Source of the DNA: Lentisphaeria bacterium
Lineage (GTDB): Bacteria > Verrucomicrobiota > Lentisphaeria > Victivallales > UBA1829
Length of the DNA: 58,596 nt
Direction of reading: 5' to 3'
Assembly (NCBI GenBank): GCA_017456495.1
Contig: JAFTJI010000028.1
Location: 1 to 58,596 of the forward strand
Position 1 is the first letter of the stretch, and every line of letters starts with the position of its first letter. This document shows, in pieces, positions 1 to 58,596 of the stretch. Below the pieces are notes generated by a model, which was not told where the DNA came from, ran no database searches, and saw only the letters and a list, made by a program, of their open reading frames with translations. The translations under genes and the position numbers were made by a program.

Positions 1-1065
1 CAGGCAGCAAAGAAATTCAATGTGATCGAAGTCGTTGCCTGCGCCGATATCATTCCGGAACGCGCCGCAAAGAAAACTGAACTTTACGGTGTGCCGAACA
101 TGACCAATGAAGAACTTCTCGCCAGAGAAGATATTGAGATCGTGCTCAACCTTACACCGCCGCGTGTTCACTCCAAGATCGCAATGGATACCCTCAACGC
201 CGGGAAACATGCCTACTCCGAAAAACCCTTCGGCGTGGATGCAGCGGATGCTGCAAAAGTCATGACTCTGGCAAAAGAAAAAGGGCTGCGCGTCGGCTGC
301 GCTCCCGATACATTCCTCGGCGGCGGACAGCAGACAGCCCGGAAACTGATCGACGACGGCTGGATCGGGAAACCTCTTTCCGGTACGGCAATGGTTCTCG
401 GCAGAGGTCCGGAAAAGTGGCCTCAGGCACCTTTCTTCTACGATTACGGTGCAGGTCCCATGCTGGATTTGGGTCCTTACTATATCACCGCTCTCGTAAA
501 CATGCTCGGCCCTGCGGAAAGCGTTACGGCTGTTACGACCAAAGGTTTTGAAACACGCACCTACGGTGCAGAAGTGGCAGACGAATACAAAGACAAGTAC
601 AAACCGTTTGACAAGTATCCTGTCAATGTGACCACACACCTGACCGGAATCATCAAATTCAAATGCGGTGCAGTGATCACTATGATCGCCAGCTTTGACT
701 GCTACAAGCACGGACATTGCCCCATTGAGATTTACGGTACGGAAGGTTCTCTGCAGGTTCCCGACCCCAATACATTCGGCGGTCCCGTGCGTGTCTTCAA
801 GCCGGGTTATGAAAGCTGGCAGGAAGTTCCGCTGACTCACGGCTATACCGAAAACAGCCGTTCCATCGGTGCTGCGGATATGGCAAACGCTCTTCACAGC
901 GGACGTCCCCACCGTGCAAACGGCGATCTGGCAAACCATGTTCTTGAAGTCATGCTTGCCTTTGACAAGTCCAGTGAACTCGGCAAAGAAGTTATTCTGG
1001 AAACCACCTGTGAACGTCCGGCAGCACTTCCTCTGGGACTGGAACCGGGAATGCTTCCTGAATGA
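1..1065 (+). CDS. Gfo/Idh/MocA family NAD(P)-dependent oxidoreductase, 5' end cut by the window edge
   Basis: Frame 1 is open from base 1 (QAAKKFNVIEVV...), so the GTG at 22 is internal. The N-terminal Rossmann GxGxxG part is missing. The family-typical EKP motif (YSEKPF) and C-terminal domain are present. Stop TGA at 1063-1065. Confidence 0.85.
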   Translation, partial: QAAKKFNVIEVVACADIIPERAAKKTELYGVPNMTNEELLAREDIEIVLNLTPPRVHSKIAMDTLNAGKHAYSEKPFGVDAADAAKVMTLAKEKGLRVGCAPDTFLGGGQQTARKLIDDGWIGKPLSGTAMVLGRGPEKWPQAPFFYDYGAGPMLDLGPYYITALVNMLGPAESVTAVTTKGFETRTYGAEVADEYKDKYKPFDKYPVNVTTHLTGIIKFKCGAVITMIASFDCYKHGHCPIEIYGTEGSLQVPDPNTFGGPVRVFKPGYESWQEVPLTHGYTENSRSIGAADMANALHSGRPHRANGDLANHVLEVMLAFDKSSELGKEVILETTCERPAALPLGLEPGMLPE

Positions 1066-1106
1066 TCGTCTGACCGTTTCAAAGGCAGATCAAAGCCAAA
1101 AGAAAA

Positions 1107-1147
1107 CGCCCCGAAAGTACATTTCAGCTTTCGGGGCGATTTTTTTC
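1107..1147. terminator. Bidirectional intrinsic terminator between convergent genes
   Basis: Perfect stem CGCCCCGAAAG / CTTTCGGGGCG with a 9-nt loop. It is preceded by an A-run and followed by TTTTTTT. Confidence 0.8.
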
Positions 1148-1170
1148 AGATGCTGTCAAACGATCTCAAC

Positions 1171-1659
1171 TCAGCGATGTCCGCCGCGATGAGGGGGACG
1201 GGGTGCAGGTTTTCTCGGAGGAGGAGCTTTTCTGACATATTCGTCAAGAGTTCTCATCATTGCACGGGGACCGCCCTTCATATAGCCGGTTTTTCCCAAA
1301 AATTTTCCATGATCGTTCGTAATAATGATCGTGGGATAACCGCGGACGCCATATTTTGCAGCAAGAACGCGATTCTTTGCCATAATATGTTTAGGCGGCT
1401 GATTCCGTCTCGGGAAATCTGCTTTATACAGGATAAAATTATCATTGAGATATTTTACCATTTCCCGTTTGGAAAGGATCTCGCGATCCAGTCTGATACA
1501 CCATCCGCACCAGTCTGAACCTGTAAAGAATGCAAAAACAGGTTTTCCGGTTCTCTTTGACAGACGTAACGCCTCGTCGAAATCCCGCTGCCAATGGAGT
1601 CCCTGGGCAAAAAGACCAACTGTCAAAACAGTCAGCAGACACACTAACATTTTCTTCAT
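1171..1659 (-). CDS. Secreted thioredoxin-fold protein (thioredoxin_7/DUF255-like)
   Basis: CxxC motif in FTGSDWCGWC and signal-peptide-like MKKMLVCLLTVLTVGLFAQG. Start moved to the ATG at 1659, which has GGAGG 7 nt upstream. The longer ORF to 1707 has no RBS. Confidence 0.75.
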   Translation of the reverse strand: MKKMLVCLLTVLTVGLFAQGLHWQRDFDEALRLSKRTGKPVFAFFTGSDWCGWCIRLDREILSKREMVKYLNDNFILYKADFPRRNQPPKHIMAKNRVLAAKYGVRGYPTIIITNDHGKFLGKTGYMKGGPRAMMRTLDEYVRKAPPPRKPAPRPPHRGGHR

Positions 1660-1756
1660 AACGAACCTCCTTCTATTGTTATCAGGGGGGATGTTTGAAT
1701 CCGGCACCGGGAACCGCCCCGATGCCGGCAGTGCTTTTTATTCAGAGAGGATTCTC

Positions 1757-2776
1757 TCAGTTGCACCACTCAGTGATGCTTGCGACTGCAGCGCAGTCTG
1801 CGATGTCCTGGGGAGAACAACCGCGGGAGACGTCCACGAAGGGACGGCGGAGACCCTGGATCAGGGGTCCGATTGCAGTAGCACCGGCAAGACGTTCTGT
1901 TGCCTTGTAGATAGAGTTACCGCAGTTCAGGTCGGGGAAGACGAGAACGTTGCAGTATCCTGCGATTTCGGAGCCGGGAGCTTTTTTCTTTCCGATTTCG
2001 GGAACGACAGCTGCATCGAACTGGAATTCGCCGTCGACTTTCAGTTCGGGATCAAGAGCTTTTGCCTTGGCAACAGCTTCCACGACTTTGTCGATAATGG
2101 GATCATGTGCGGAACCCTTGGTGGAACAGCTGATCATACCGACTTTGGGTTCTGCGCCGGTGAACATCTTGAAGGAACGGGCGGTTGCGACAGCGATTTC
2201 AGCCAGCTGATCGCTGTCGGGGTTGATGTTCAGACCGCAGTCTGCATAGAACAGTGCACCGTTGTGTCCCCACTTGGGATCGGGCATCTGCATCAGGAAG
2301 AATGCGGAAGCGGATTTGAAACCGGGAGCGGTCTTAAAAAGCTGAAGAGCCGGACGGGTCTTGCTTGCGGTGTTGTGGTTGTAACCGTTGGGGTTTCCAC
2401 CGCCGGAGACATAACCGTGAGCATCACCTGCGCAAACCATTGCAGCGGAGAACACGCAGGTATCTTTCAGCCATTCGCGAGCCTGTTCGGGGGTCAGACC
2501 TTTGCTCTTGCGGATTTCGCAGCAGACCTGAATATATTTTTCCAGGTTGGGGGTCTTGAGAACGTCAACGACTTCAACGCCGTCAAGATTGATATTTTCA
2601 GCTGCAGCCAATGCTCTGATAGCATCTTCATCGCCAACGAGAACCGGTTTTGCAACGCCGGTTGCGACCATGATTTCAGCTGCTTTGAGGTTACGGGGAT
2701 CATCGCTTTCGGTCAAGCAGACCTTGCGGCCCAGAGTCTTCGCTTTCGCGCGGATTTTGTCGAGAACTGTTTCCAT
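1757..2776 (-). CDS. pta: Phosphate acetyltransferase
   Basis: Full-length PTA_PTB-type sequence (about 339 aa) with conserved blocks such as GNSIYK and RGCSPQDI-like C-terminus. The ATG at 2776 sits 5 nt after GGAG; the listed start at 2782 is a GTG overlapping that RBS. Confidence 0.9.
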   Translation of the reverse strand: METVLDKIRAKAKTLGRKVCLTESDDPRNLKAAEIMVATGVAKPVLVGDEDAIRALAAAENINLDGVEVVDVLKTPNLEKYIQVCCEIRKSKGLTPEQAREWLKDTCVFSAAMVCAGDAHGYVSGGGNPNGYNHNTASKTRPALQLFKTAPGFKSASAFFLMQMPDPKWGHNGALFYADCGLNINPDSDQLAEIAVATARSFKMFTGAEPKVGMISCSTKGSAHDPIIDKVVEAVAKAKALDPELKVDGEFQFDAAVVPEIGKKKAPGSEIAGYCNVLVFPDLNCGNSIYKATERLAGATAIGPLIQGLRRPFVDVSRGCSPQDIADCAAVASITEWCN

Positions 2777-2894
2777 ATTCACTCCATTTCTGATTTATTT
2801 TGCCTGTTCTTTGAACAGATTACCATCTTTGGGAAATTTAGCACAGATTCCTGCACTTTCAACCCGTATTGGATAAAAAAAACATTTTTTCTCT

Positions 2895-3059
2895 GAGGCA
2901 ATTTCTAAAGTCCGGCAAAATTTGGCTGAAAAAAGATTGTTGATGAGTTGGAAATGGTAGTTTGAGCGTGGCTACCCACAAGGTAACCACCGAAAACGCT
3001 CCATTTGCAGATCGCAACAAGAATTTTCTGACATTTTTGAAGACTTTTGAAATTGCCTC
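2895..3059 (+). mobile_element. MITE-like repeat, copy A (165 bp)
   Basis: Terminal inverted repeats GAGGCAATTTCTAAAGTC ... GACTTTTGAAATTGCCTC, flanked by direct CTCT/CTCT. Homologous to 50264-50447 and 58459-58596. The central segment is shorter and different from copies B and C. Confidence 0.8.
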
Positions 3060-3213
3060 CTCTGTTCAAACGTCTGAAAATGAGAAAAAAAAGGATCTGT
3101 TTCAAAAAAGACCGGATTTTTTTAGCACAGAAGAATCCCGGGATTCATTTGAACCTGTAAAATTCCTCACAAGAGTACTGATTTCACAAAACAGAAAAAC
3201 AAGGCTAAAAAAA

Positions 3214-5118
3214 CTACCGGCGAACTCTTTTTAGTAGCTGTAAATTGTTCTTTGCCAGGGGATTTCCGTATTGGATTGCAATTTGTAAATACTTTTCAGC
3301 TTTTGCAAAATCCGGTTTTAATCCTCTGGTTCCAAGCATATGGATATACCCCAAAGCATTATATGCGTACCCTAAAACTTCCCGGTTATTACTTTCAGCC
3401 GTAATCTGCAGGAGTAAACGTCTTGCCTCGATATAAGATACATTTCTCCCCTGCCGATTCACAATCTTACAACGCCGGTTCACCAATAGCAAGGCTCTAT
3501 TCAATCTTCCGTATTCATTACCAAGTTCGGCAGCTTTTGTATAACTTTGAAATGCTTCATTGTATTTACCTTTATTTTCCAAAGCAATACCTTTATTATT
3601 ATAATAAGTACCGCTATCTTTATCTCTCGGTGGATTGGCTGAAGGCTTTTCTGCGCTAACTGAAGGCTTTTTCGGACTATTCAAAAGCTTTTCTGCGCTA
3701 ACTGAAGTTTTTTTCGGACTATTCAAAAGCTCTTCTGCGCTAACTGAAGGCTTTTTCGGACTATTCAAAGGCTTTGGTACGCTAACAGAAGGCTTTGCGC
3801 TGTTCGAAGGCTTTTCTGCGCTAACAGAAGGCTTTGCGCTGTTCGAAGGCTTTTCTGCGCTAACCGAAGGCTTTTTCGGAATATCCGAAGCTTCTTGTGT
3901 ATTGTTCGAAGCGTTTGCTTCGAACAATTTATTAAGCTCAATTTGTTGGGGATGGGGAACCGCAACTGCGGCTATATCCTGGGCTAAATCTTTAAACAAA
4001 TAACTGTTCGGTATTAGATGGGACCTCGTTATTTTACCCGAAGAAAATGATGAGCTATACTTTACGGGACTCACCGTGAAATTTTTTTGTTTCTCTATCG
4101 ACAGAAGAGTACTCGGATAAAGCTGCTCGGAAAACGCAAAACTACACCATTTTTGAGGTCTCATATCTACCACCAGCACATCGAACTCCGGAGAACGCCA
4201 TTTGGATAATCTGGAGCATGGTATATTTCCCCGCCATATATCGGAGAAAGATATTTCAAAATTCATGGCACGATCATTATCAAAAATATGCCAAGCATCA
4301 AAATTGTCTAAATCAAACCTGGATTTTTCGCCGTAGTAGATTTCAAAATCTTTTTTATTCTCGGATTTGACAAAACAAATGAACATATTGTGCTTTTTTG
4401 GATCACGCTGCTTTGTAAAGCCAAGTTCCGTCATAAATATATCCGGTTTGATCTGGATTTTTTTCGGATCAAATTGCCAGTATCCATTGACGATCAGTCT
4501 TGATTTATTGCCATACATATCATTTCCGATCCCGACGGAATCAATAACGATTTCATATCCTTGAGCAGTATTCAGCAAACATTTGCTCAAAATTTCTTTC
4601 CGTTGACCAACAGACATATCTCCACGGGCAGCATACTGTCTGGTAAATTCATTATCAATGCGACTGTTGAGCGAAGTAAGACATTCCACTGCATTGATCA
4701 CGAATTCATTATCGGTATTTTCACCGGATTCTGACAGAATTTTGTTTGCCTTGGCATATTGTACAAAGGCTTTTTGAATATCTTCTTCCATCTTTATAAA
4801 GACAGCCAACCGAGGCAGAGAAAAAATATTGGCAACGAAATTATCCAACTTCTGTTTCTGCTTATCCAGTTCCAAGCGGAGGTTCCGGTTTTGATTTTTC
4901 CGGGATTCTGTCGAAAGTTTTTTTCTGGTTTCAGCAAAATATTTACCGTCACTCATATCAGAAATAAAGCTGGTCACTGCAAAAATCACCCGTTTTCCTG
5001 GAGATAATCTCTGATCTCCAGCCCCCAGCAACACTAAAACCAGAATTGTAGAATTTGAAAACAGCCAAATAATAAGAGATACAAAAATATTGCTCCAGCA
5101 GATTTTTTTATTATCCAT
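3214..5118 (-). CDS. Hypothetical membrane-anchored protein with coiled coil, unknown core domain, Pro/Ser-rich tandem repeats and C-terminal Sel1/TPR-like repeats
   Basis: N-terminal hydrophobic helix (IFVSLIIWLFSNSTILVLVLLGAG). PSVSAEKPSNSAK-type repeats. C-terminal YYNNKGIALENKGKYNEAFQSYTKAAELGN and GYAYNALGYIHMLG...AEKYLQIAIQYGNPLAKNNL resemble Sel1 repeats. AAAGGGA RBS before the ATG at 5118. Confidence 0.7.
   Translation of the reverse strand: MDNKKICWSNIFVSLIIWLFSNSTILVLVLLGAGDQRLSPGKRVIFAVTSFISDMSDGKYFAETRKKLSTESRKNQNRNLRLELDKQKQKLDNFVANIFSLPRLAVFIKMEEDIQKAFVQYAKANKILSESGENTDNEFVINAVECLTSLNSRIDNEFTRQYAARGDMSVGQRKEILSKCLLNTAQGYEIVIDSVGIGNDMYGNKSRLIVNGYWQFDPKKIQIKPDIFMTELGFTKQRDPKKHNMFICFVKSENKKDFEIYYGEKSRFDLDNFDAWHIFDNDRAMNFEISFSDIWRGNIPCSRLSKWRSPEFDVLVVDMRPQKWCSFAFSEQLYPSTLLSIEKQKNFTVSPVKYSSSFSSGKITRSHLIPNSYLFKDLAQDIAAVAVPHPQQIELNKLFEANASNNTQEASDIPKKPSVSAEKPSNSAKPSVSAEKPSNSAKPSVSVPKPLNSPKKPSVSAEELLNSPKKTSVSAEKLLNSPKKPSVSAEKPSANPPRDKDSGTYYNNKGIALENKGKYNEAFQSYTKAAELGNEYGRLNRALLLVNRRCKIVNRQGRNVSYIEARRLLLQITAESNNREVLGYAYNALGYIHMLGTRGLKPDFAKAEKYLQIAIQYGNPLAKNNLQLLKRVRR
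3636..3892 (-). repeat. In-frame tandem repeats (about three 42-nt units, then 39-nt units) inside the 3214-5118 CDS
   Basis: TTCTGCGCTAAC recurs at 3649, 3691 and 3733 (42-nt period), then CTTTTCTGCGCTAACAGAAGGCTTTGCGCTGTTCGAAGG repeats with a 39-nt period. It encodes the PKKPSVSAEKLLNS / AKPSVSAEKPSNS units. Confidence 0.85.
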
Positions 5119-5129
5119 GACGTTCCCTT

Positions 5130-5702
5130 TCAGCGTTCTTTGAACTGACCATTTCCTATTTCTTCATAAGGCCTGCCACTTGCATTCCGCCAAATTCCTA
5201 TTGGATCATCAGCATGCCGCAGTAATTCAGTTCCATTCGACAGCCGAACCGTTTCAACCACTCTTCCTGGCGAGTCTGTTGGTTTTTGCATATTAGCCTT
5301 TATTGTTACTGATATAAAAATACCAATAAAAACAATTGCAATCAACAATATAATACCCATAACGACTGCATATACCACAAGAGATGTTATCAACAGAAAT
5401 GCTGATGTTATGATTGCCACAAAAAAAGGGTAGAAAAATTTACGAAAAAAACCGGGCAGCACAAATATATGATCGATATGAAAAATCTCATTAAAAAATC
5501 CAGTGGCGAAACAAAAATATTCCAGAGATAATTTGTCGATCGCCGCCAGAATGGATACTGAAAGAAGCCCCGAAAGAAGCGACAATGAAAGCATATGTTT
5601 TGCTCCCTGATAATTTGATAGAGCTTTACCCTTATGATTAAAAATAAACTCATCCAGTTTTCTTATCTGATCCTGAATTTTCCCCAACCCCAATCGATCC
5701 AT
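5130..5702 (-). CDS. Hypothetical multi-pass membrane protein
   Basis: Three or four hydrophobic segments (e.g. LSLSLLSGLLSVSILAAI, FFVAIITSAFLLITSLVVYAVVMGIILLIAIVFIGIFISV) and a soluble C-terminal tail. AGGAGA RBS. It ends 11 nt before the next gene's start. Confidence 0.65.
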   Translation of the reverse strand: MDRLGLGKIQDQIRKLDEFIFNHKGKALSNYQGAKHMLSLSLLSGLLSVSILAAIDKLSLEYFCFATGFFNEIFHIDHIFVLPGFFRKFFYPFFVAIITSAFLLITSLVVYAVVMGIILLIAIVFIGIFISVTIKANMQKPTDSPGRVVETVRLSNGTELLRHADDPIGIWRNASGRPYEEIGNGQFKER

Positions 5703-6179
5703 TTCACTTCTCCTGCTTTGCAGTTATTGTTAATGTCCCAAATTTTATGATAGGACGAATTATTAAAAAAAAGAGCTTCTTCCTTTTTTAACAACCGAAC
5801 AAAAAAGAAAAGGAAGAAACAAATATATAATAAATTTATCATGGAAACAATAATTTGTCAAGCGGAAAATGTATTTTCTTTTGATTAATTAGTCATAAAT
5901 TTATCAGCAACCTGCGAAAAGAACGGCCTTACAGAGATTTTGAAAATGAATTTGAAATACTGGTAATTGAAACTGTCAGCGGAAAGGTTTCCGTTTTGCC
6001 TCAAACTGCCCATAACAGTGTATGCAACACAGATTACGATAGATGGTCAAAAGAGGGGGAGGCTGTTGCAAACTGGCATTTTTGAAAGAGCAATTTTGTA
6101 TAAAGAGCTCCATTAAAAAAGCATTTTCAGCATATAGTTTTTGCAACAGCTCCTGAAAAAGATCTTTCTAATATTGAGA

Positions 6180-7076
6180 TCAAAGATGGAAGACAGGCTC
6201 CGCTTTTCCGCTTTGGAGAGATTTCAAAGCAGCTTCCTGCAACGCCATGACTTCCACAGAATCTTCCAGCGCAACAGGCTGTTCCCCATGGAGGAATTTG
6301 ACAAATTCTTTCATCAGCATGTAGTAGAACGGAACGCGTCCGGTCACCTTGATGAAAAGTCCGTCATTTTCTTTGGTACGGATCAACGCACCGTAGCTGT
6401 ATGCGGAACCAAGCTCAACAATACCTGTTCTGCCGTCGGCATACTTGATACGGAACAGGTAGTTATCCCCTTCTTTTACGCCGCGGACAGATTCGGCACC
6501 GCAGCCCATGATGCGCTGGATCATTTCAAATGTATGACAGCCGTACCAGATGACCGCTTCGCCTTTCGGCGGGATCCCGGCAGGTCCCCAGGTCATGCCT
6601 TTTTCCACGGGCAGATTCTTTTCCAGACCTTCCACGAAGTCGATATCGAACCGGAGACTGGAGGAAGTGAAGAAGCGGACATTATATTTCTTTGCAAGGT
6701 CGATGATCTTGCACATGTTTTCCACGCTGTCGGCAAAGGGTTTGTCAAGAAAGATCGGCTTGCCCAGGGGAGCGCATTTTTCAAAATATTCCAAATGCAG
6801 TGCGGGATCGTTGATTTCGATCATGATCGCATCGCAATCTGCAACAGACTCTTCAAAGTTTTCAGTGACTGTCACGCCGATGCTTTCCAGATATTCCTGA
6901 CGTTTATCGAGACCTTCTTTGTTCTGAAACGCGGTTTCAAAGCGGAGGCATCTTGTGACGCGCAAACCGGAGATTTTCTGATCTTCGGGGGTGGCGGGAT
7001 CCTGCATCAGCTTCGGGAACGCTGTTGCGTGGCTGGTATCAAGTCCAACAATGGCAATTTTGATTTCTTCTGACAT
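6180..7076 (-). CDS. Gfo/Idh/MocA family oxidoreductase
   Basis: N-terminal IKIAIVGLDTSH Rossmann-like start and family-like length. Start set to the ATG at 7076 (AAAGGAA RBS); the listed 7094 start is a TTG that overlaps the upstream gene's stop. Confidence 0.8.
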   Translation of the reverse strand: MSEEIKIAIVGLDTSHATAFPKLMQDPATPEDQKISGLRVTRCLRFETAFQNKEGLDKRQEYLESIGVTVTENFEESVADCDAIMIEINDPALHLEYFEKCAPLGKPIFLDKPFADSVENMCKIIDLAKKYNVRFFTSSSLRFDIDFVEGLEKNLPVEKGMTWGPAGIPPKGEAVIWYGCHTFEMIQRIMGCGAESVRGVKEGDNYLFRIKYADGRTGIVELGSAYSYGALIRTKENDGLFIKVTGRVPFYYMLMKEFVKFLHGEQPVALEDSVEVMALQEAALKSLQSGKAEPVFHL

Positions 7077-7090
7077 GGTTGATTCCTTTC

Positions 7091-7876
7091 TCAATTATTT
7101 TTCCGGAATTCGGATGGTGATTGTTTCATAAATTTACTGAACTGGCGGGAAAAGTAAAATTCTCCGCCGAATCCGCTGGCAAAAGCGATCTCTTTGACAA
7201 GCATATCTGTTGTCTGAAGCAGATGTGCTGCGTAACGGATCCGCTGCTGCAGAATATAATGGTTCGGGGAATATCCGGTTTCGCGCCGGAACAATCGTCG
7301 GAAATGCACCTCCGACAGTTTATTTTCCAATGCAAACGCCCCGATATTCCACTCTTTTTCAGGATGTTCCGCGATTTTTTCTGCAAAACCAGCAATGATT
7401 TTATGGTTGAATGCTCCAGCTTGACGGGGCGCAGGCTGATTCATGGAAAGCAGCAGAGCCTTTTCCAGCAGCAGAACGGATTCTCCGAAACCCGTCCGTG
7501 AATTTTTCTGCAGCTGCCGGACGATTTCCCCCATCAGAGAGGTGAACTCTTTCTCTTCCGTGATGATGATTTTCTCTCCGATCTCCGGCATCAAACCTCC
7601 GGCAAGATAACGGTTCACCCGCTCTCCGCGGAAACAAACATAATAATGTTCGCGTCCGCCGGAGGGTGTGTGATAGGTGAACCTTTTCCCCGGTCCGGTC
7701 AGAAACAGAAGCGGACCTTCCGCCAGCCATGCCGGACCGTCATCGCATTGAACATAGATCTCCCCTCCCCTGATGTATTGCAGACCGTAGTAATCAAAGG
7801 AGCGATCCTTTGTCACTCCGGTCGCATGTTTACTGCTGCCGAAGCAGACAAACTCAAGGTCAGAGAAGTAATCCAT
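7091..7876 (-). CDS. AraC family transcriptional regulator
   Basis: N-terminal cupin-like sensor domain and C-terminal double HTH (FRRLFRRETGYSPNHYILQQRIRYAAHLL...FYFSRQFSKFMKQSPSEFR). Confidence 0.9.
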   Translation of the reverse strand: MDYFSDLEFVCFGSSKHATGVTKDRSFDYYGLQYIRGGEIYVQCDDGPAWLAEGPLLFLTGPGKRFTYHTPSGGREHYYVCFRGERVNRYLAGGLMPEIGEKIIITEEKEFTSLMGEIVRQLQKNSRTGFGESVLLLEKALLLSMNQPAPRQAGAFNHKIIAGFAEKIAEHPEKEWNIGAFALENKLSEVHFRRLFRRETGYSPNHYILQQRIRYAAHLLQTTDMLVKEIAFASGFGGEFYFSRQFSKFMKQSPSEFRKNN

Positions 7877-7881
7877 GATGA

Positions 7882-8994
7882 TTACATGATTCCTTTGGGA
7901 ACCTTGACGGTCTTTTTCAGCGGGTTCTGCTTATGGCATTCTTCAATGATCGCGATCTGACGGCGAACCTGTTCGAGCTGGACAACCAGCGGTTCCCCGG
8001 CTGTGATTGCATCGTAGATATTGCAATAGTATTTGGTTCCCCAATCGTCAAAGGAGTTGGCGAAATCGGGGAGTTCCATCTTTTCAGAATAGAAATTCAG
8101 TTTTTCGGAGCAGTAGACGGGAAGACGTCCCTCGGTTTCCATAGTTTCGATTCTGACCTGAACAGGCTGTGCCTCGGACGGCTTGTAATACTTCCATTCC
8201 ACGGTGCTGCCGTCTGCAACGAGAGAACCGTTGGAACCGAAGACCTGGTACATCTTCTGGGGGAAGAGACACTCTTTGGTCACTTCCAGGTCGATGACCG
8301 GATGACCTTTTCCATCAAAAACGAGTTTGACAAAATCTTCTGCATCGCCTGCGTTATTGTAGTTGGCGAGTCTGGAGAAAATGCGTTCCGGCATGGATGC
8401 GCCGAACATATCCCACAAAGCGATCATCTGATCCAGCGGATGGGGAGCGGTGTTCATCAGTTCCCCGGCATTCAGCCCCTGAACGGTCTGCCAGTCCCAG
8501 CGTCTGCCGAATGAGTTGTAAGAAACTTTGACCATTGCGATTTCGCCGAGGACTCCGGAGCGGATAACATCACAGATTTTCTGATAAAGGGGACGGAAAC
8601 GCGCCTGCTGGAAGACCGCGAAGAACTTTCCTGTTTCTTTCTGAACTTTCAGGAGACGGTCAACTTCGCTGACTTTGTTGGTCAGAGGTTTTTCGCTGAT
8701 CACGTTATAGCCGGCTTTCATGGCTTCGATGGAGATATCCACATGCTTGTGGCTGCGGCTGGCATTGACGACCAGTTCCACATTTTTATCTTTCAGAAGC
8801 TCTTTGTAATCGGCATAGTGCTTGCACTTGGGATTTGCACCGGGGTTGGTGTTGGCTCTGCGTTCTTCAATGGGGTCCGCAACGGCTACCACATCAAAAC
8901 GTTCCTGCAATGCGGGACAGCATTCAAAAAGATGACGGTGGATGTTCCGTCCGCTGCGACCCTGACCGATGATACCGACTTTGATCCGTTTCAT
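7882..8994 (-). CDS. Gfo/Idh/MocA family oxidoreductase
   Basis: MKRIKVGIIGQGRSGRNIH Rossmann motif, EKPL motif (ISEKPL), AAGGAG RBS. Confidence 0.85.
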   Translation of the reverse strand: MKRIKVGIIGQGRSGRNIHRHLFECCPALQERFDVVAVADPIEERRANTNPGANPKCKHYADYKELLKDKNVELVVNASRSHKHVDISIEAMKAGYNVISEKPLTNKVSEVDRLLKVQKETGKFFAVFQQARFRPLYQKICDVIRSGVLGEIAMVKVSYNSFGRRWDWQTVQGLNAGELMNTAPHPLDQMIALWDMFGASMPERIFSRLANYNNAGDAEDFVKLVFDGKGHPVIDLEVTKECLFPQKMYQVFGSNGSLVADGSTVEWKYYKPSEAQPVQVRIETMETEGRLPVYCSEKLNFYSEKMELPDFANSFDDWGTKYYCNIYDAITAGEPLVVQLEQVRRQIAIIEECHKQNPLKKTVKVPKGIM

Positions 8995-9140
8995 GATACT
9001 TTTCTCCTTTGTGAGTTAAAGTGATTGATTCTATCTTAAACTATCACAAAAAAAACAAAATGCAAGCATATCAGAGAAAAAAAGGATATCTTTTCTGATC
9101 ATCCATAAACAAAAAGAAACATTTCATACAGAAGTAAAAA

Positions 9141-10166
9141 TCAAAAAGTTGCTATCCAGGGGATAACTTTTTCCATGACCTCTTCCGGTGTGATCAGATC
9201 CATGCATGAGCCGCTTTCTTTCGGACAAATCCCTTTTCTGCATCCGGCACACGGAACTTCTTTCCGGATAAAGAGATGTCCTTTTCCCACCGGATGCCAC
9301 TTTTCTTCCGGAAGTTCATGAGCGGAATAAAGGATCGCACACCGGATTCCGGCTATCCCGGCAAGATGCGCACTTCCGGTGTCGTTTCCGATATAACAAA
9401 GGCATTTCCGGTAAAATGCAATCACTTCTCTCAACGTCTTACAATCGGTATCAGGCAGAAAAACACCCCCACATGAAGCGATCAGCTTTTCAGCGAACAC
9501 TCTATCAGAAGGACCTCCTGTATAGACAGGCAGAAAATCCATTTTTGTTTTCAGCAGTTTTATCAGCTCAACATAATTTTCCTGTTTCCAGAGACATGCC
9601 GGTTTTTTACCGCCGATTCCAAAAGCGATCATTGGAACATCAGAGCCGTCTTGAATTGCCTCAGCTGTTTTTTCTGCAGTCAGCACTTCAGCTTCTGTTA
9701 GAGGAAAATTGAAAATCTCTTCTGAAAAAGTCAGACCACAATCCTGCAATTGATTGATATACTCCTGATAGATCGGTCCTCCCGCGCTTTCCTGGTATTG
9801 CGAGAGCTCCTGCTTTTTGAATTGAAACAGTAGAGAACCAACTGCTATTGTCTTGGAATATTCATGATTGAATGCAAAGGAAAAGACCCGGTCAAAACGA
9901 TATTTGAGGAGAAGACGGAAAAATGGCAGATAGAAGCTCAATTTTTCGCGGAGATTCCGGGGCGGCGGCAACAAGTGAACTTCCGAAAAAAGATCATCAC
10001 CGGCAAAAAGTTCCGCATGGAGCGGGTAATTTGTGGTATAATGATTCATCAGAATCAGGTCGGCATCAGGATAATTCTTCCGGATCATACGGAATGCGGG
10101 ATATGTTACAAGAGTATCTCCCACGTGACCGAAATAATAGATTAAAATCTTCCTGCGCTTTTTCAT
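9141..10166 (-). CDS. Glycosyltransferase family 9 (heptosyltransferase-like)
   Basis: HVGDTLVTYPAFRMIRKNYPDADL N-terminus and C-terminal GNDTGSAHLAGIAG motif, both typical of GT9. Confidence 0.75.
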   Translation of the reverse strand: MKKRRKILIYYFGHVGDTLVTYPAFRMIRKNYPDADLILMNHYTTNYPLHAELFAGDDLFSEVHLLPPPRNLREKLSFYLPFFRLLLKYRFDRVFSFAFNHEYSKTIAVGSLLFQFKKQELSQYQESAGGPIYQEYINQLQDCGLTFSEEIFNFPLTEAEVLTAEKTAEAIQDGSDVPMIAFGIGGKKPACLWKQENYVELIKLLKTKMDFLPVYTGGPSDRVFAEKLIASCGGVFLPDTDCKTLREVIAFYRKCLCYIGNDTGSAHLAGIAGIRCAILYSAHELPEEKWHPVGKGHLFIRKEVPCAGCRKGICPKESGSCMDLITPEEVMEKVIPWIATF

Positions 10167-10599
10167 CCAAAGGTTCCGTAATTTTGTTTCAGAGTTCCAG
10201 CCTCTTTTTGTTCACGCGTAATATACTGCAAGTATTCTTAAAATCAAGCAGAACAAAAAAGATAAACTCGTGAAATATAAATGAGATCGTTGCAAAACCT
10301 ACATGCAGAACACACGTTTTAACGGAGTCTTTTATGATGATTTCCGGTGCAAGCAGCGTAAACCGGATGATCCGGGAAACATACGCATCGTCTTTCCGAT
10401 GTGACAGAAATAAGGAAAAGACAAAGCTGTTTCCGCAGTTTTGCAATGCCATAACCATAAATTTTTAACAGTCTTTTGTGTTTGAAAAACATTTTCCGAA
10501 ACGATGTTCTCTATAATGAAGGATTTGTAAGAGTATTTTCTTCTGTACGCCAAACACAGATATGAGACAATATTGATATTAATTGAGAATATATCAATA

Positions 10600-10628
10600 T
10601 TGACAAAAAAGTTGTTTTGTGTTATATT
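10600..10628 (+). promoter_or_regulatory. Sigma70-like promoter candidate (TTGACA-17-TATATT)
   Basis: TTGACA at 10600-10605, exact 17-nt spacer, TATATT at 10623-10628. It lies about 265 nt upstream of the first pseudopilin gene. Confidence 0.5.
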
Positions 10629-10892
10629 TAGTTTCAGAAGGGAGTTTCCGGTATTTCAATCTGCGCTTCGTGTAAATGTTTGAATATTTTTTTTATTTTC
10701 AACAAATTAAATGATCCGCAAAAAATAAAAGCAAATCTCCGGATGATAATAAAAAGCAGTTATCTGCTGAAAAGTATGCTGATTTTTATTATGTACACTC
10801 CCGGGTTCGTATTGCAATTATTTTGATAATTGCATGAATCAGAATCATTGCAAAAGATCGGAAGGACCTTAATTGTAGAAGGAGATAAAAAA

Positions 10893-11609
10893 ATGAGACT
10901 ATTACACAAAAGAAACAAATGCTTCACACTGATTGAACTTCTGGTCGTAATCGCAATCATCGCAATCCTTGCCGGAATGCTGCTGCCTGCGCTGAATAAT
11001 GCAAGAGCACACGCAAAGGCTTCCAGTTGTACTGCAAAGTTGAAACAGCTGGGAACTTATACGACCCTTTACAGCGATGATAATGCCGGCTTTATTATTC
11101 CTGCGTATGTGAAGAAGTGGGGATCAAATCACACTTGGGCAGTGGTTCTGAGAGGAGAGATGAAAATGGATTGGAAACTTCTCTGGTGTCCCGGAGATCC
11201 GCCGCCGGTCATGAGCCGTGAACATATTCCCAATGCCCTGATCAATATGAGTGATTATATCCGCTATTCATTGAATCAGAATGCTTCCCCGTTCAGCAAC
11301 GATGCCTCGTTTACTCCGACTCTCTGGAAAACCTCACACATCAAACAGCCTTCCAATTTTATTCATGCGATGGACCGGAAAAATACTCATGCGTTCTCCC
11401 CGAAACCGCGTATCGGCAAGCCGTTTTTTGACAAGAACAGTCTTGAACAAAATTCCAGTTTCCCTGTTCTGGGATGGCACGGCGGATCTGTTTCGTTCCT
11501 GCATTTCGACGGTCACACTTCCAGTACCAAACGCGTACCGATAGATCCCTCTGTTGATAAATGGCTGTGGTTCCGGACGGGAGACTCTGATGAACCGTAT
11601 GCAGATTGA
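10893..11609 (+). CDS. Prepilin-type N-terminal cleavage/methylation domain protein, H-X9-DG (DUF1559-like) pseudopilin
   Basis: [24 protein letters not shown] class III signal and C-terminal [14 protein letters not shown] (H-X9-DG). ATG at 10893 follows GGAGA. Confidence 0.9.
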
Positions 11610-11658
11610 TTTCTGTTTGTAATATTTTTAAGCACGATAATAAGGAGTATTTCAGAGA

Positions 11659-12411
11659 ATGTCTGTTTTGCAACAAAAAATGAAACAATTACACAAAAGA
11701 AACAAATGCTTCACACTGATTGAACTTCTGGTCGTAATCGCGATCATCGCAATCCTTGCCGGAATGCTGCTGCCTGCGCTGAATAATGCCAGGGGACGGG
11801 CACGCGCTACTGATTGTATTTCGAGACTGAAACAGCTGGGGCTTTTCAATCAGACCTACAGTGATGATTCCGGAGATTGCATTATACCTTCCTATGTAAA
11901 AAAATGGCATGGAAATTATACATGGGCACGGGTTCTCAACCTTAACTATGGTGTCGAACGCAAGTTTTTTGTGTGTCCCGGCAATCCGCCGCCGTCTGGA
12001 AATTATGAAAATCCCGATCTGAAGAATATGAACTATATTATCCGGTACGGTTACAACAGGTACGCTTCACAGTATTGTGATTCCACCTCTGAAATTCCGA
12101 GATTCCATAAATTATCCAATATCAAAAATCCCTCGAGATTTGTACATGTTATGGATCGAAAAAACGCTTATGTATTCCGTGGGGTATCAGGTTATCCGTT
12201 TTTTGCAAATGTATCAGGGGGACCCGGTGAGGATTTGCGGAGCTGGCCTGTGGTTTCAGAAAACTGGCATGCAAGAAGTGCTTCTATGCTGCACATGGAT
12301 GGTCATGTGACAAATACAACGACACTTCCGATCAAAGCTGAAGATGATCCTTACATGTGGTATCGTACCGGAGACAGTTCTGAATCATACTCAGATACCA
12401 TAAGTGAATGA
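11659..12411 (+). CDS. Prepilin-type H-X9-DG pseudopilin (tandem paralog)
   Basis: Same [24 protein letters not shown] signal and C-terminal [14 protein letters not shown]. An alternative start at 11680 (MKQLHK) is possible. Confidence 0.9.
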
Positions 12412-12458
12412 TGCTGAAAATGTTACGATCTCGATTAAAAAAATATTAAGGAGTAAAA

Positions 12459-13475
12459 ATGTCTGCACTAGAACAGAAGATAGACCATTACATCAAAGAG
12501 GGCGTTTTTGACGGGGCGGTTATCCTTGCCGGAACAGAAAAAGAAGATCTGTTTTCCCATACGCAGGGGCTTTCCAACCGGAATACGAACCGTCCCATGA
12601 GTATGGACACTGTCTTTGATGTATCAAGTATTTCCAAGCCTATGGGGACAGCGACTTCGGTTCTGCTGTTAGCGGAACGCGGTCTGCTGGATCTGGACCG
12701 TCCGTTTACAGATTATCTTCCCGAATACAACGGAACGATGGTGAATCCGAACGTTAATTTCCGGATGCTTGCCAGTCATTATTCCGGGATCATTCCGGAT
12801 TATCCCCTGGGCGTTTCATCGGAAGAACTGATGTCCCGGATGATGAAATCTCCGTTTGTACACGAACCGAATACTTTGTTCCGTTACTGCTGTGTCAATT
12901 ACAATTTTATGAGTCTGATCGTTGAAAAAATCAGCGGTCAGCCGCTGGAAGTGTTCGCGGAAGAAAATATTTTCAAGCCCCTTGGCATGACAGATACCGC
13001 CTGGGCGACCCCGAAACCGGAACAGCGGGACCGTTTGGTGATCCATTGCCGTTGTGTCGACAGTGATCCGGCGGTGATTTTTGACCGCTGGGCGCGTGTT
13101 TTGCATCCTCATGCCATGGGAAATGCGGGGATTTTCACAACTGCACCGGACCTTGCAAAATACGCCAGAATGATCCTGCGGAAAGGAAAAGGATTTTTCC
13201 GGAGTGATATCGTTGAACGCGAAATGTTCCGGAATTTTGCTCCGGAGGGGATGAAACCCCGTTCGTTCGGATGGGATCTCACCCCGGAACTGCTGATCAA
13301 AAACTTCTCGGATCAGACCATTTACCACAGCGGTTCCAGCGGACAATCCATGTGGATCGACTGGGGTACCGGAAAATTCTGTATTGTTCTGACCAATCTG
13401 TTCGGGGAGCATGATGCAGGAATTGCCGCCCGCCTGGATATAGCAAATGAAATAACAGGAGAAATATGGAAATGA
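12459..13475 (+). CDS. Serine hydrolase of the beta-lactamase/transpeptidase-like family (PF00144-like)
   Basis: SxxK motif SISKPMGTA. Size and overall pattern resemble class C-like esterases. AAGGAG RBS. Confidence 0.7.
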   Translation: MSALEQKIDHYIKEGVFDGAVILAGTEKEDLFSHTQGLSNRNTNRPMSMDTVFDVSSISKPMGTATSVLLLAERGLLDLDRPFTDYLPEYNGTMVNPNVNFRMLASHYSGIIPDYPLGVSSEELMSRMMKSPFVHEPNTLFRYCCVNYNFMSLIVEKISGQPLEVFAEENIFKPLGMTDTAWATPKPEQRDRLVIHCRCVDSDPAVIFDRWARVLHPHAMGNAGIFTTAPDLAKYARMILRKGKGFFRSDIVEREMFRNFAPEGMKPRSFGWDLTPELLIKNFSDQTIYHSGSSGQSMWIDWGTGKFCIVLTNLFGEHDAGIAARLDIANEITGEIWK

Positions 13476-14335
13476 AACTGTTCGGATTCATTATCGGAGT
13501 TCTTTTCTTCCATTTGGTCTGCGCCGATCAAATTGCGGAAAGAACTGCATGGCTGAAAAAATTCAATGCAGCAAAAGATCCCCTTCCCATTCTGGAAGAA
13601 GGGATGAAATCTTCAGATGCGGAGATTCAGGCAAAAGCTGTTTTTGAGTATTTTCAAATCAAAAAAGATGCCGCGTATCCGGTACTTCTGCGTCTGGCAA
13701 ACAAGTCTTCGGACCAGCTCGCCAGAGTTCTGATCTGCTGCGCTGAAACTTTGAAGGATAAAAAGCAGAAAGCAGAATTGCTGAAAGCGATCGCTTACGG
13801 AACATACAGTTCCTCTGCTGCGGCAGAAGCAAACCGGAAGAATTTTTCCTTCCACAGAATCAATGTCCGCTTGCAGGATAGAAAAGATTGGGACTTCAAC
13901 ATTGAAAAAATCATGACTGTCCGGATTCCGGAAACGAACTGGAAATCTTTCCATGACAGAGATGCTTCGGGGCACATGAAAGGCTTTTTCAGTGTGGATT
14001 ATTCAGACAAACATTGGGTGAAAGCGGGTCCGAAGACTTTGAAATATCAGCCGCTTGTCTGGTACCGCATCAGATTTACAGCTCCGAAAAAACCTGTATG
14101 CAATGCAGCGGAACTCCACTTTGCAGGAGTTGAAGCAACGGCATGGGTCTGGTTGAATGGCATTTACATCGGTGCCAGAGATGAAGGGCAGTCTGCCTGG
14201 AACAAACCCTTTGCCCTTGATATTACCAACGAAATCCGTTGGGGAGAAGAAAATGTACTTGTTGTCAGAGTCAGTTCCACTGATGTTTCTGACAGCGGAA
14301 TTTATAAACCTGTAACTTTGGAGATTTTGAAATGA
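13466..14335 (+). CDS. Secreted protein with C-terminal GH2-type sugar-binding (galactose-binding-like) domain
   Basis: Signal peptide MKLFGFIIGVLFFHLVCA. The C-terminal VWYRIRF...AELHFAGVEATAWVWLNGIYIGARDEG...FALDITNEIRWGEENVLVVRV resembles the GH2 N-terminal beta-sandwich. The start overlaps the upstream stop. Confidence 0.5.
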   Translation: MEMKLFGFIIGVLFFHLVCADQIAERTAWLKKFNAAKDPLPILEEGMKSSDAEIQAKAVFEYFQIKKDAAYPVLLRLANKSSDQLARVLICCAETLKDKKQKAELLKAIAYGTYSSSAAAEANRKNFSFHRINVRLQDRKDWDFNIEKIMTVRIPETNWKSFHDRDASGHMKGFFSVDYSDKHWVKAGPKTLKYQPLVWYRIRFTAPKKPVCNAAELHFAGVEATAWVWLNGIYIGARDEGQSAWNKPFALDITNEIRWGEENVLVVRVSSTDVSDSGIYKPVTLEILK

Positions 14336-15012
14336 AAAAAACAACATTCTTTGCACTTTTCACCGCTTTGACCACCTCTGTTTTCGCACAGGAAATCGAA
14401 TGGGATTTTACCAAAGGAATCAAACCGAACGGCCCTTATGAATTTAAGCTTATCGCACCGGCAACTATTGAAGACGGCTATCTTTATGTGAATGATCCTC
14501 TCGACAGAAAATGCCCGGGATCAGTTTATTCAATGCAGAAATATGCAGACCTCACTCCGAAAGGGGCATTTTCCATGACATTTGTATTCACCATGGAAAA
14601 AGCAAGATCACCGCAGTATTACCAGATGCTTTGGGACAGCAAAGGTGATTACTACGATAAAAAAAGCGGTAAGCCGCTTGACAATTCCGGTTTTACAGTA
14701 GCGATCTACCGTCCGAAAAACGCAAAGGTCATGGGAATCAATATCTGGCTTGGAAATGGAAAAGAGACCTCGACCATCAAAACAAAGAGAGTCCCCTTTG
14801 AAATCGGGAAAAAATATACTCTGGTGTTCAATTATGATGGAAAGAGCAAATATTCCGTTACGCTGGATGGAAAAGTTCTCGGAGAAGGAACTGTGGCTCC
14901 CGGCGGTGCGATCGGTCAGGCTATCTACAAACCCACGATCGGGAACCGTTCTGTTGGAAGTTACTTCCCCTTTGACGGAAAGATCTACTCTGTCAAAATG
15001 GTCAAAAAATGA
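14332..15012 (+). CDS. Secreted LamG/concanavalin-like jelly-roll domain protein
   Basis: Signal peptide, stand-alone roughly 200-aa domain ending GNRSVGSYFPFDGKIYSVKM. Clear paralog of the N-terminus of the next gene. ATGA start/stop overlap. Confidence 0.55.
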   Translation: MKKTTFFALFTALTTSVFAQEIEWDFTKGIKPNGPYEFKLIAPATIEDGYLYVNDPLDRKCPGSVYSMQKYADLTPKGAFSMTFVFTMEKARSPQYYQMLWDSKGDYYDKKSGKPLDNSGFTVAIYRPKNAKVMGINIWLGNGKETSTIKTKRVPFEIGKKYTLVFNYDGKSKYSVTLDGKVLGEGTVAPGGAIGQAIYKPTIGNRSVGSYFPFDGKIYSVKMVKK

Positions 15013-50223: not shown

Positions 50224-50263
50224 AATCCTTCCCGAAATCAACCATGACATCTGTAAAAGTGAT

Positions 50264-50447
50264 GAGGCAATTTCAAAAGTCCGGCAAAATTTGTCTGAAA
50301 AAGGATTGTTGATGAGCTGGAAATGGCAGTTTGAGTGTGGCTACCATCCTCCTTCGCTGAAGCTATGGAGGATAAACCGGGAACGCTCCATTTTACAGAT
50401 CGAAACAAGGATTTTCTGACATTTTAGAAGACTTTTGACATTGCCTC
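50264..50447 (+). mobile_element. MITE-like repeat, copy B (184 bp, complete)
   Basis: TIRs GAGGCAATTTCAAAAGTC ... GACTTTTGACATTGCCTC. Perfect 4-bp direct repeats TGAT/TGAT flank it. It contains an internal ATCCTCC...GGAGGAT stem. Confidence 0.85.
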
Positions 50448-58370: not shown

Positions 58371-58458
58371 AATGGTGATAATTTACTATATATTGGTGAT
58401 TTTGTCAAGGCATATTCCGGAAAAATATGCTATATTAGTGCAAAACAACAGATTACAT

Positions 58459-58596
58459 GAGGTAATTTCAAAAGTCCGGCAAAATTTGGCTGAAAAAAGA
58501 TTGTTGATGAGTTGGAAATGGTAGTTTGAGCGTGGCTACCATCCTCCTTCGCTGAAGCTATGGAGGACAAGCCGAAAACGCTCCATTTGCAGATCG
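58459..58596 (+). mobile_element. MITE-like repeat, copy C (3' end cut by the window edge)
   Basis: Starts with GAGGTAATTTCAAAAGTCCGGCAAAATTTGGCTG and is nearly identical to copy B through the ATCCTCC...GGAGGAC core. Confidence 0.8.

Follow-up and report, generated by a model that had tools for sequence, protein, structure and literature searches.

An accessory gene pair of Victivallales encodes a predicted four-span membrane protein and an anchored protein with an orphan core and an optional Sel1 tail

Introduction

What does an unannotated, AT-rich gene pair between pta and a Gfo/Idh/MocA operon encode, and how did it come to be there? The pair lies in a 58,596-nucleotide contig of a Lentisphaeria bacterium of the order Victivallales (GenBank assembly GCA_017456495.1, contig JAFTJI010000028.1), which was analyzed at its full length and is referred to here as the window. 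The Lentisphaerota are a phylum with almost no experimental biology. An earlier reading made from the letters of the window, here called the sequence-only reading, took the cassette (3060-6140) for an island, probably horizontally acquired, coding for a 190-aa integral membrane protein (P0002) and a 634-aa membrane-anchored Sel1-repeat protein (P0001). It proposed either a phage-defence or abortive-infection pair or an envelope or host-interaction factor. We find that the two genes are a genuine conserved pair and belong to two unannotated protein families confined to the Victivallales. Both the fold of the P0001 core and the pairing of a small partner with an anchor motif are new.

Results and Discussion

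The two genes form a conserved pair

The small gene lies upstream of the large one in the same direction, and 11 nt separate the two. An AGGAG stands 8 nt 5' of the small gene's ATG and an AAGGGA 5' of that of the large gene, both read from the sequence. The sequence-only reading, which had described co-directional genes 11 nt apart with Shine-Dalgarno sequences, is borne out here.

A small gene followed by a large one, 2-14 nt apart, is found in five independent contexts with different flanking genes, at identities of 23-98%. The pta context is common to the window and two strain variants of it, L002 and L003. In L004 (66% identity for the large protein, and 63%) a CapA-like gene comes after the pair, and in L005 (40% identity) the large protein is 367 aa long and is without the linker and Sel1. 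The pairs of L006 and L007 (33% and 53% identity) lie between genes for an M48 peptidase and a nitroreductase. The fifth context is that of genome G010 (23% and 32% identity), in which there are two Sel1 modules and the flanking genes are lipopolysaccharide (LPS)-kinase-like and formyltransferase-like; these two neighbors and the CapA-like one were named by eye from sequence. In comparison with the L004 copy, the large gene has a ratio of nonsynonymous to synonymous substitution of 0.14 and the small gene one of 0.27, which indicates purifying selection on both.

A short motif in the anchor of the large protein distinguishes paired from unpaired members. An (S/T)LxxW motif is found in the anchor of all eight partners encoded next to a small-family gene and in none of the three solo homologs. 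The solo clade (P0018, P0019 and G001-C95) has no small gene nearby and is found in unrelated contexts; its anchor is a basic flank followed by a transmembrane helix and then PxGWRALA. A 70-aa open reading frame (ORF) preceding P0018 was considered as a mini-partner and rejected as not hydrophobic. The anchor motif tracks the presence of the small partner, which suggests that the small protein docks the anchor.

Beyond the fused form, the parts also occur separately. In G152 the gene after the small one codes for a 298-aa protein in which the same anchor and a coiled coil are joined to Sel1, without the beta core. The order in G002 and G174 is a Sel1 protein (85.9 bits in G002), a 118-aa anchor/coiled-coil protein and the small gene, and in G179 and G155 a zinc-ribbon transmembrane protein precedes the small gene. 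The coexistence of fused and split variants points to a functional link between the small protein, the anchor/coiled-coil part and Sel1, and shows the beta core and Sel1 to be heads that can be exchanged.

At one distant locus (L122 in G155:C85; 1-540 and 872-2052), a small gene and its zinc-ribbon transmembrane partner lie between ORFs that by eye resemble a tyrosine-integrase fragment and dnaN. The integrase-like neighbor hints that some variants of the pair ride on integrative elements. Two further distant small-family genes adjoin genes for related small membrane proteins of 114 and 155 aa (L115:2299-2643 in G152 and L116:1482-1949 in G148). These share a C-terminal amphipathic helix and have no Pfam match above threshold.

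Architecture of the two proteins

P0001 was modelled with AlphaFold (AF2), both at full length (mean predicted local distance difference test score, pLDDT, 64) and as residues 56-345 alone from a six-sequence alignment. The models and Foldseek confirmed the architecture that had been read from the sequence, namely a transmembrane helix, a coiled coil, an unrecognized domain, a Pro/Ser linker and Sel1 repeats (Table 1). The anchor motif in P0001 reads S14-L-I-I-W18..S21. The helical region that follows the anchor is conserved in all large-family members.

The beta-rich core had been called unrecognizable, and it stayed so. Near-invariant in it are N211, G212, Y213, P218, G263, K265, C301 and R320. 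The core-only model (pLDDT 82.9, predicted TM-score 0.73) consists of a beta domain with some ten strands, against which four helices pack. Foldseek found no relative of this model in the PDB, the best of the top 50 matches listed having an E-value of 0.07 and a TM-score of about 0.1. The one weak match in BFVD, to an uncharacterized phage protein (E 4e-4, root-mean-square deviation 9.3), was rejected because its TM-score is 0.27. Pfam gave no match to the core and no consistent weak domain in any of the 13 large-family members, NCBIfam gave no meaningful match to either protein, and a profile search of PDB sequences with P0001 returned the Sel1 tail only, plus MotB at E 0.13. Across Pfam, NCBIfam, PDB sequences and Foldseek, no catalytic motif or enzyme family was found for either protein.

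The core also occurs in P0021, a 784-aa protein from NCBI metagenomes, where it occupies residues 441-616. At its N-terminus P0021 has a zinc ribbon together with a TM2 domain (Pfam E 7.9e-10), followed by more transmembrane helices, with about 200 unassigned residues between. This fusion shows that the core can be joined to quite different membrane anchors.

The linker after the core differs by 39 nt (13 aa), one repeat unit, between the window genome and the 98%-identical strain L002. The C-terminal part of P0001 (residues 503-633) was modelled as six paired helices with pLDDT of about 80-88 and has the alpha-alpha repeat solenoid fold. Foldseek with full-length P0001 returned TPR/Sel1 structures only; CTPR3, an Oxalobacter Sel1 protein, LceB and HcpC matched the tail with probability 1.0 and TMt up to 0.78, and LpnE was matched as well. 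The Pfam Sel1 model (PF08238) scored 23.6 bits on P0001 against a cut-off of 30.7, a sub-threshold Sel1/TPR match at residues 499-615. Sel1 was matched in five of the 13 large-family members (best E 6.6e-15), and the stand-alone partner in G002 scored the 85.9 bits given above. The domain is optional, being absent in P0005 and duplicated in G010.

In P0002, four hydrophobic spans are predicted, followed by a soluble C-terminal tail of 55 aa, in agreement with its description as an integral membrane protein with a small soluble tail. Its N-terminal helix is conserved (D17, F21, Y31), and it has an LPGFFRKFFYP loop. Across the small family the only invariant residues are D17, in the N-terminal soluble helix, F21, Y31, N71 and Y91. 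N71 is the sole invariant polar residue within the membrane; the adjacent E72 is not conserved, being missing from G010 and from distant members. Positive charges are found at the N-terminus, in the RK of the loop and after the last span. This placement of basic residues at N-terminus, loop and tail fits four transmembrane helices with both ends in the cytoplasm. P0002 had no Pfam, PADLOC or PDB-sequence profile match, and Pfam on 12 small-family members gave no consistent weak domain.

Distribution of the two families

Both families are rare. A word-index search of 5.8 billion proteins returned three relatives for each of P0001 and P0002. With a profile of the core, HMMER found 13 proteins at E <= 1e-3 among 1.84 billion cluster representatives, all of them metagenomic and none named. 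Only four of 251 Victivallales species genomes encode the core (G000, G001, G010 and G177); other matches in this set are mostly to the Sel1 tail only. The small family is convincing in about 10 of the 251. In a sample of 401 genomes from the phylum, the core was found in Victivallales genomes only. No core relatives were found by pattern scan on 2.9 million viral contigs or in JGI metagenomes, nor by close alignment in genome contigs. We found no literature joining Victivallales with Sel1.

With the core in so few genomes, and with the region upstream of pta differing in relatives, the pair is accessory and not part of the core synteny.

Composition and genomic site

The cassette is AT-rich. 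Its G+C content is 38.6% (3060-5702) or 37.7% (3060-6140), compared with 46.8% for the 3.43-Mb assembly. This corresponds to z = -2.7 and to the lowest 1.4% of 5755 windows, making the cassette one of some 28 regions that are similarly rich in AT. Between 2.8 and 6.2 kb, windows of 400 nt have a G+C content of 32-40%, with minima of 31.8-35%, compared with about 50% on either side. The low G+C content claimed by the sequence-only reading is therefore real, though the 32-33% it quoted describes local minima only. The G+C content at third codon positions (GC3) of the two genes, 0.37 and 0.31, falls at genome percentiles 2.9 and 0.6, and their genome-referenced codon-adaptation index at percentiles 3.0 and 0.5. 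Low GC3 and low codon adaptation together indicate that the AT shift is not merely an amino-acid effect. In every host the cassette is richer in AT than the DNA that flanks it, for example with GC3 of 0.32 against 0.48-0.56 in L006 and of 0.21-0.27 against 0.54 in G152.

In the window the cassette is placed between the pta side, consisting of pta and a thioredoxin-like gene, and the side of a Gfo/Idh/MocA-AraC-Gfo/Idh/MocA operon. Both flanking genes named in the earlier reading were confirmed. The repeat beside the cassette, a miniature inverted-repeat transposable element (MITE)-like sequence, had been taken as its left border. The element is real; however, it has about 169 blastn matches in the assembly, or about one per 20 kb, which is too frequent to mark the edge of an island, and we rejected it as a border. 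Further copies lie at 50262-50447 and 58457-58596 of the window, and others near the pta/xylAB region of the same-genus genomes G001 and G002. Several copies stand at contig ends, so the element is probably the cause of much of the fragmentation of the assembly.

None of the integration marks of a classical genomic island was found. No tRNA was found in positions 1-15000, no integrase was among the ORFs within 10 kb, and the direct repeats around the cassette are 12-14 nt long, at chance level. An empty site, with pta adjoining the Gfo/Idh/MocA operon, was not present among 22 Victivallales pta loci. In all 22 (two from the same genus and 20 others), both the cassette and the Gfo/Idh/MocA operon are absent upstream of pta. 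Synteny generally breaks upstream of pta, and for this reason an empty site cannot be shown. The term island holds in the sense of atypical composition and patchy distribution; its strict sense, which involves an integrase, tRNA, direct repeats or an empty site, is not supported. Horizontal acquisition likewise gains from atypical composition at synonymous sites, sparse distribution and five contexts; mobility genes and an empty site were not found.

The pta junction acts as a hot-spot for variable cargo. Upstream of pta, G001 has a small low-GC gene for a zinc-ribbon/transmembrane protein with a PA-repeat (L028:3052-3804), and G002 has one for a small low-GC TlpA-like thioredoxin lipoprotein (L029:9165-9788). 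Each of these two genes adjoins a conserved xylA-xylB pair.

Between the window and strain L002 the cassette is 0.28% diverged, compared with 1.5% for a 2.8-kb flank (Fisher p about 2e-6). The lower divergence is suggestive of recent spread of the cassette by recombination. The flank itself is a mosaic: in the comparison of positions 1-5707 with L002, divergence is 2.8% for Gfo/Idh/MocA, 1.07% for pta and 0.19% for the thioredoxin-like gene. This mosaic points to frequent homologous recombination among strains.

A possible docked complex and its alternatives

The explanation we favor, with about as much doubt as confidence, is that the products of the two genes dock to form a complex of the inner membrane whose binding heads are exchangeable and probably lie in the periplasm, and that this complex is accessory and circulates horizontally among gut Victivallales. 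The two genes would form an operon for this accessory complex. The 190-aa protein would dock the transmembrane anchor of the 634-aa protein through the conserved (S/T)LxxW face. The large protein would then project its helical stalk, the orphan beta domain, the Pro/Ser/Lys linker of variable length and the Sel1/TPR solenoid, most probably into the periplasm, where the solenoid may bind a protein or another envelope ligand. Such a complex would be a membrane-tethered device for capture or scaffolding and not an enzyme. We infer that the two proteins touch, that the large one faces the periplasm and that Sel1 binds a ligand. The periplasmic orientation is favored by the strongly basic N-terminal flanks of the solo homologs (for example KRKKRIKR in P0019), which are strongly N-in, together with the N-terminal hydrophobic anchors that the stand-alone Sel1 partners have of their own; both suggest that stalk, core and Sel1 are periplasmic.

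Several points weigh against this model. The interaction of P0001 and P0002 lacks direct evidence, and the family is too small for covariation. In the paired clade the charge balance is ambiguous, at +1 to +2 on each side of the anchor, and a cytoplasmic orientation is possible by analogy with LapB-type TPR proteins. The pairing is not strictly one-to-one, as distant small proteins have other partners, such as zinc-ribbon transmembrane proteins or small membrane proteins. As for mobility, our searches found the cassette without mobility genes, tRNA, target-site repeats or an empty site, its low GC3 could come partly from low expression rather than from foreign origin, and the mosaic flank (0.19% at the thioredoxin-like gene against 2.8% at Gfo/Idh/MocA) makes the signal of a younger island weak. 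The model is also silent on ligand and phenotype.

The population genetics of the cassette are like those of defence genes, and the sequence-only reading had put forward a phage-defence or abortive-infection pair. In a module for phage defence or superinfection exclusion, the Sel1 protein would serve to detect or obstruct some component of the phage at the envelope, with the small protein as membrane effector or anchor. Consistent with this are the sparse and patchy distribution, a different context in every genome, the AT-shifted composition, the variable pta junction with different cargo in sister species, the modular swapping of the C-terminal "sensor" (zero, one or two Sel1 modules), the repeat-length polymorphism of the linker between strains, and the integrase fragment seen by eye beside the distant locus L122. 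However, this is a population-genetic resemblance, with no support from hidden Markov models (HMMs), context or phages. No family of PADLOC-DB 2.0 matched either protein, even with E-values of up to 1 allowed, no PHROG match was meaningful and no copy was found on viral contigs. The loci inspected have no defence genes as neighbors; the genes there (pta, thioredoxin, Gfo/Idh/MocA, M48 peptidase, nitroreductase, LPS-kinase-like, formyltransferase and CapA-like) are metabolic or housekeeping, and were themselves not PADLOC-scanned. Neither protein has a recognizable effector domain (nuclease, NADase, protease or pore-former), and most defence systems are spread more widely than this family, which is confined to a single order. 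We therefore regard defence as unlikely. A role at the cell surface or in host interaction seems to us quite unlikely. The Sel1 tail, on a stalk of variable length, would bind proteins of the host or of partner cells in the gut, with the small protein as membrane chaperone or anchor. Foldseek matches of the tail include LpnE, LceB and HcpC, and a link with host interaction is known for Sel1-repeat proteins of several host-associated bacteria, among them LpnE of Legionella and NMB0419 of Neisseria (PMC7327166). The linker varies by one repeat unit between strains, as is often the case in contingency-type surface proteins, and two same-genus genomes are from gut samples (sheep colon and human gut). 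On the other hand, P0001 has an N-terminal inner-membrane anchor in a diderm, we saw no outer-membrane translocation signal, lipobox or secretion-system neighbor, and P0005 has kept the pairing without having Sel1.

The order of the genes and the build of the proteins also recall energy-transducing devices of the TonB-ExbB, TolA-TolQ, MotAB or GldLM type, in which ion flow through the polytopic subunit drives the bitopic one. Here too the gene for a small polytopic protein precedes that for a bitopic one with a polar anchor motif, stalk, Pro-rich spacer and binding domain, and the anchor and stalk have a very weak profile match to Campylobacter MotB, at the E-value of 0.13 given above. Neither protein has an invariant membrane carboxylate, however, the P0001 anchor offering Ser and Trp only, which argues against a motor of the MotAB, ExbBD or GldLM kind. 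There was no HMM match to MotA/ExbB/TolQ, MotB/ExbD, TonB_C or GldL/M and no structural match by Foldseek, and an accessory distribution is atypical for such machines, making this reading very improbable. It is hardly credible that the pair is what remains of a lysis or membrane cassette of a phage, in which the small protein would be the holin-like member and the transmembrane/coiled-coil protein the spanin-like one. The topology is like that of a holin with an i-spanin, most of all in the split form with the 118-aa transmembrane/coiled-coil protein, and the best BFVD match of the core is the phage protein mentioned above. That match nevertheless has a TM-score of 0.27 and a root-mean-square deviation of 9.3. 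PHROGs gave nothing for the small protein (E 0.31) and only Sel1/coiled-coil stretches for the large one, no endolysin or phage gene is nearby, the pattern scan of 2.9 million viral contigs found no copy, and the pair is under purifying selection in five contexts.

If the docked complex holds, it adds two new protein families and a docking rule in which a small polytopic subunit recognizes an (S/T)LxxW anchor. That rule would organize otherwise unannotated membrane proteins of gut Lentisphaerota, and the cassette would illustrate concretely how accessory modules of the envelope travel and exchange domains within the lineage. For the present the practical impact is limited, the family being tiny and its lineages uncultured ones of gut and rumen. 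A more speculative extension, which we consider unlikely, is that the pair is the founding example of a new, Victivallales-restricted envelope system made up of two new protein families, one of which has a fold without a solved relative. A four-helix subunit would recognize the anchor motif and recruit interchangeable periplasmic heads (the orphan beta domain, a single or double Sel1 module, or Sel1 as a protein of its own), and could so form an exclusion or defence device against phages or competitors. The combination of mobility and modularity is what raises the possibility of such a new envelope-level device.

Comparison with known systems

Among known systems, TonB-ExbB and TolA-TolQ also join a bitopic N-anchored protein having a polar motif, stalk, Pro-rich spacer and binding domain to a small polytopic neighbor. 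The pair differs from them in having no homology to TonB_C, TolA, ExbB or TolQ, no third subunit like ExbD or TolR and no membrane carboxylate, and in being accessory, not core, with Sel1 as its C-terminal module. Measured against TonB itself, P0001 has no TonB_C and its anchor has SLxxW and not SxxxH, so that the Pro-rich spacer alone is analogous. Neither the carboxylate nor the homology expected of the ion-driven 5:2 motors (MotAB, ExbBD, TolQR, GldLM and ZorAB) was found. GldL/GldM (PorL/PorM) form the motor of type IX secretion and gliding, and GldM has an N-terminal transmembrane helix and a multi-domain periplasmic rod. As in the cassette, the gene for the small polytopic protein is directly 5' of that for the bitopic one; unlike GldL/GldM, the pair has no sequence or fold similarity to them, no conserved Glu/Arg pair in the membrane and no type IX secretion genes nearby. 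In NfeD-stomatin/flotillin operons (yuaF-floT and ybbJ-qmcA) a short multi-span protein with a beta-rich tail is encoded upstream of a membrane scaffold with long helices. The cassette has a similar layout, with a short multi-span protein gene upstream of a membrane-anchored scaffold. However, no member matched NfeD or Band_7 even with E-values of up to 1 allowed, the Foldseek matches included no structure of stomatin or HflK/C, and in P0001 the order is reversed, with helices and then beta.

The C-terminal 130 aa of P0001 form a Sel1/TPR solenoid as in the Sel1 proteins ExoR, RgsF, LpnE, LceB and HcpC. Sel1 domains mediate protein-protein binding, for example that of ExoR to ExoS, and bacterial Sel1 proteins such as ExoR, LpnE and RgsF act as periplasmic regulators or host-interaction factors (PMC7327166). 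Unlike these soluble periplasmic or secreted proteins, P0001 is bitopic and its Sel1 domain is optional, the conserved parts being anchor, stalk and orphan beta domain. Sel1L/Hrd3-Hrd1 of eukaryotic endoplasmic-reticulum-associated degradation offers an architectural analogy only, that of a Sel1 adaptor held at the membrane by a polytopic partner. Sel1L structures are among the Foldseek matches to the P0001 tail, but there is no homology outside the repeat, and the eukaryotic system has a C-terminal anchor, a RING ligase as partner and belongs to another kingdom. For the MCE systems (LetAB, PqiAB and MlaD) there was no MlaD/MCE match in Pfam and none among the top 50 Foldseek matches listed. 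Phage holin/spanin lysis cassettes share neither homology nor a phage context with the pair. Membership among intramembrane proteases, CPBP, SPFH/NfeD, MCE, TonB or 5:2 motors was rejected, as the defining motifs or domains are absent.

Signals and neighboring features

The features of the cassette and its surroundings are collected in Table 1.

Table 1. Positions of the cassette genes, the parts of P0001 and neighboring features in the window
Feature	Position	Strand	Basis or description
Small gene, P0002	5130..5702	-	ORF; 190 aa, polytopic membrane protein
Large gene, P0001	3214..5118	-	ORF; 634 aa, bitopic protein
N-terminal transmembrane anchor (aa 8-33)	5020..5097	-	AF2 helix 8-33; Kyte-Doolittle span 9-34
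Juxtamembrane amphipathic helix and four-helix stalk/bundle (aa 40-184)	4567..5001	-	AF2 full-length and core models
Orphan beta-rich core (aa 188-332)	4123..4557	-	Core-only AF2 model
Disordered Pro/Ser/Lys-rich linker (aa 346-497)	3628..4083	-	pLDDT <50
Tandem array encoding linker	3642-3884	-	42 nt x 5.9, Tandem Repeats Finder
C-terminal TPR/Sel1-like alpha-solenoid (aa 503-633)	3220..3612	-	AF2, Foldseek, Sel1 in homologs
MITE-like repeat	2893..3059		165 bp; 27-nt terminal inverted repeats 2895-2921 and 3033-3059
pta	1757..2782	-	Flanking gene confirmed
Gfo/Idh/MocA gene	6180..7094	-	Flanking gene confirmed
Non-coding stretch 5' of cassette	5703..6179		477 bp, ~32-33% G+C
Hairpin	5777..5818	-	Perfect 11-nt arms 5777-5787 and 5808-5818, 20-nt loop
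Best sigma-70-like promoter match	5833..5861	-	TTGACA-17-TAAATT with TG, ~130 nt 5' of small-gene ATG

The AT-rich non-coding stretch on the right of the cassette, put at roughly 440 bp in the earlier reading, is present and somewhat longer, and an Rfam scan of 2700-6300 gave zero matches. It contains the hairpin previously placed at about 5774-5818. The hairpin would fall inside the 141-nt leader, whose folding has z = -3.0, and on the minus strand a U-run comes after it. It could be a 5' leader element of the cassette or, given the U-run, equally well a weak terminator of the upstream operon. The upstream DNA differs in L004 and L006, so the hairpin is not kept with the cassette in other contexts and was rejected as a part of it. 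The promoter is a consensus match only, one of 12 such sites in the region compared with 9.4 expected by chance.

Two long frames on the plus strand, at 1445-2896 (483 aa) and 6141-7073 (310 aa), are antisense to pta and the Gfo/Idh/MocA gene, respectively. The first was rejected as a gene, being an antisense shadow of pta. Both are non-coding, and shadow frames of this kind inflate naive ORF lists for this genome.

A second AT-rich patch of about 30-36% G+C is found at 10000-11000 of the window, upstream of tandem pseudopilin-like genes. About 65 nt 3' of the stop codon of the large gene, at 3128-3151, lies the perfect palindrome GAATCCCGGGATTC, with T-runs near it on either strand. Lying between the cassette and the MITE-like repeat, the palindrome may serve as a bidirectional terminator.

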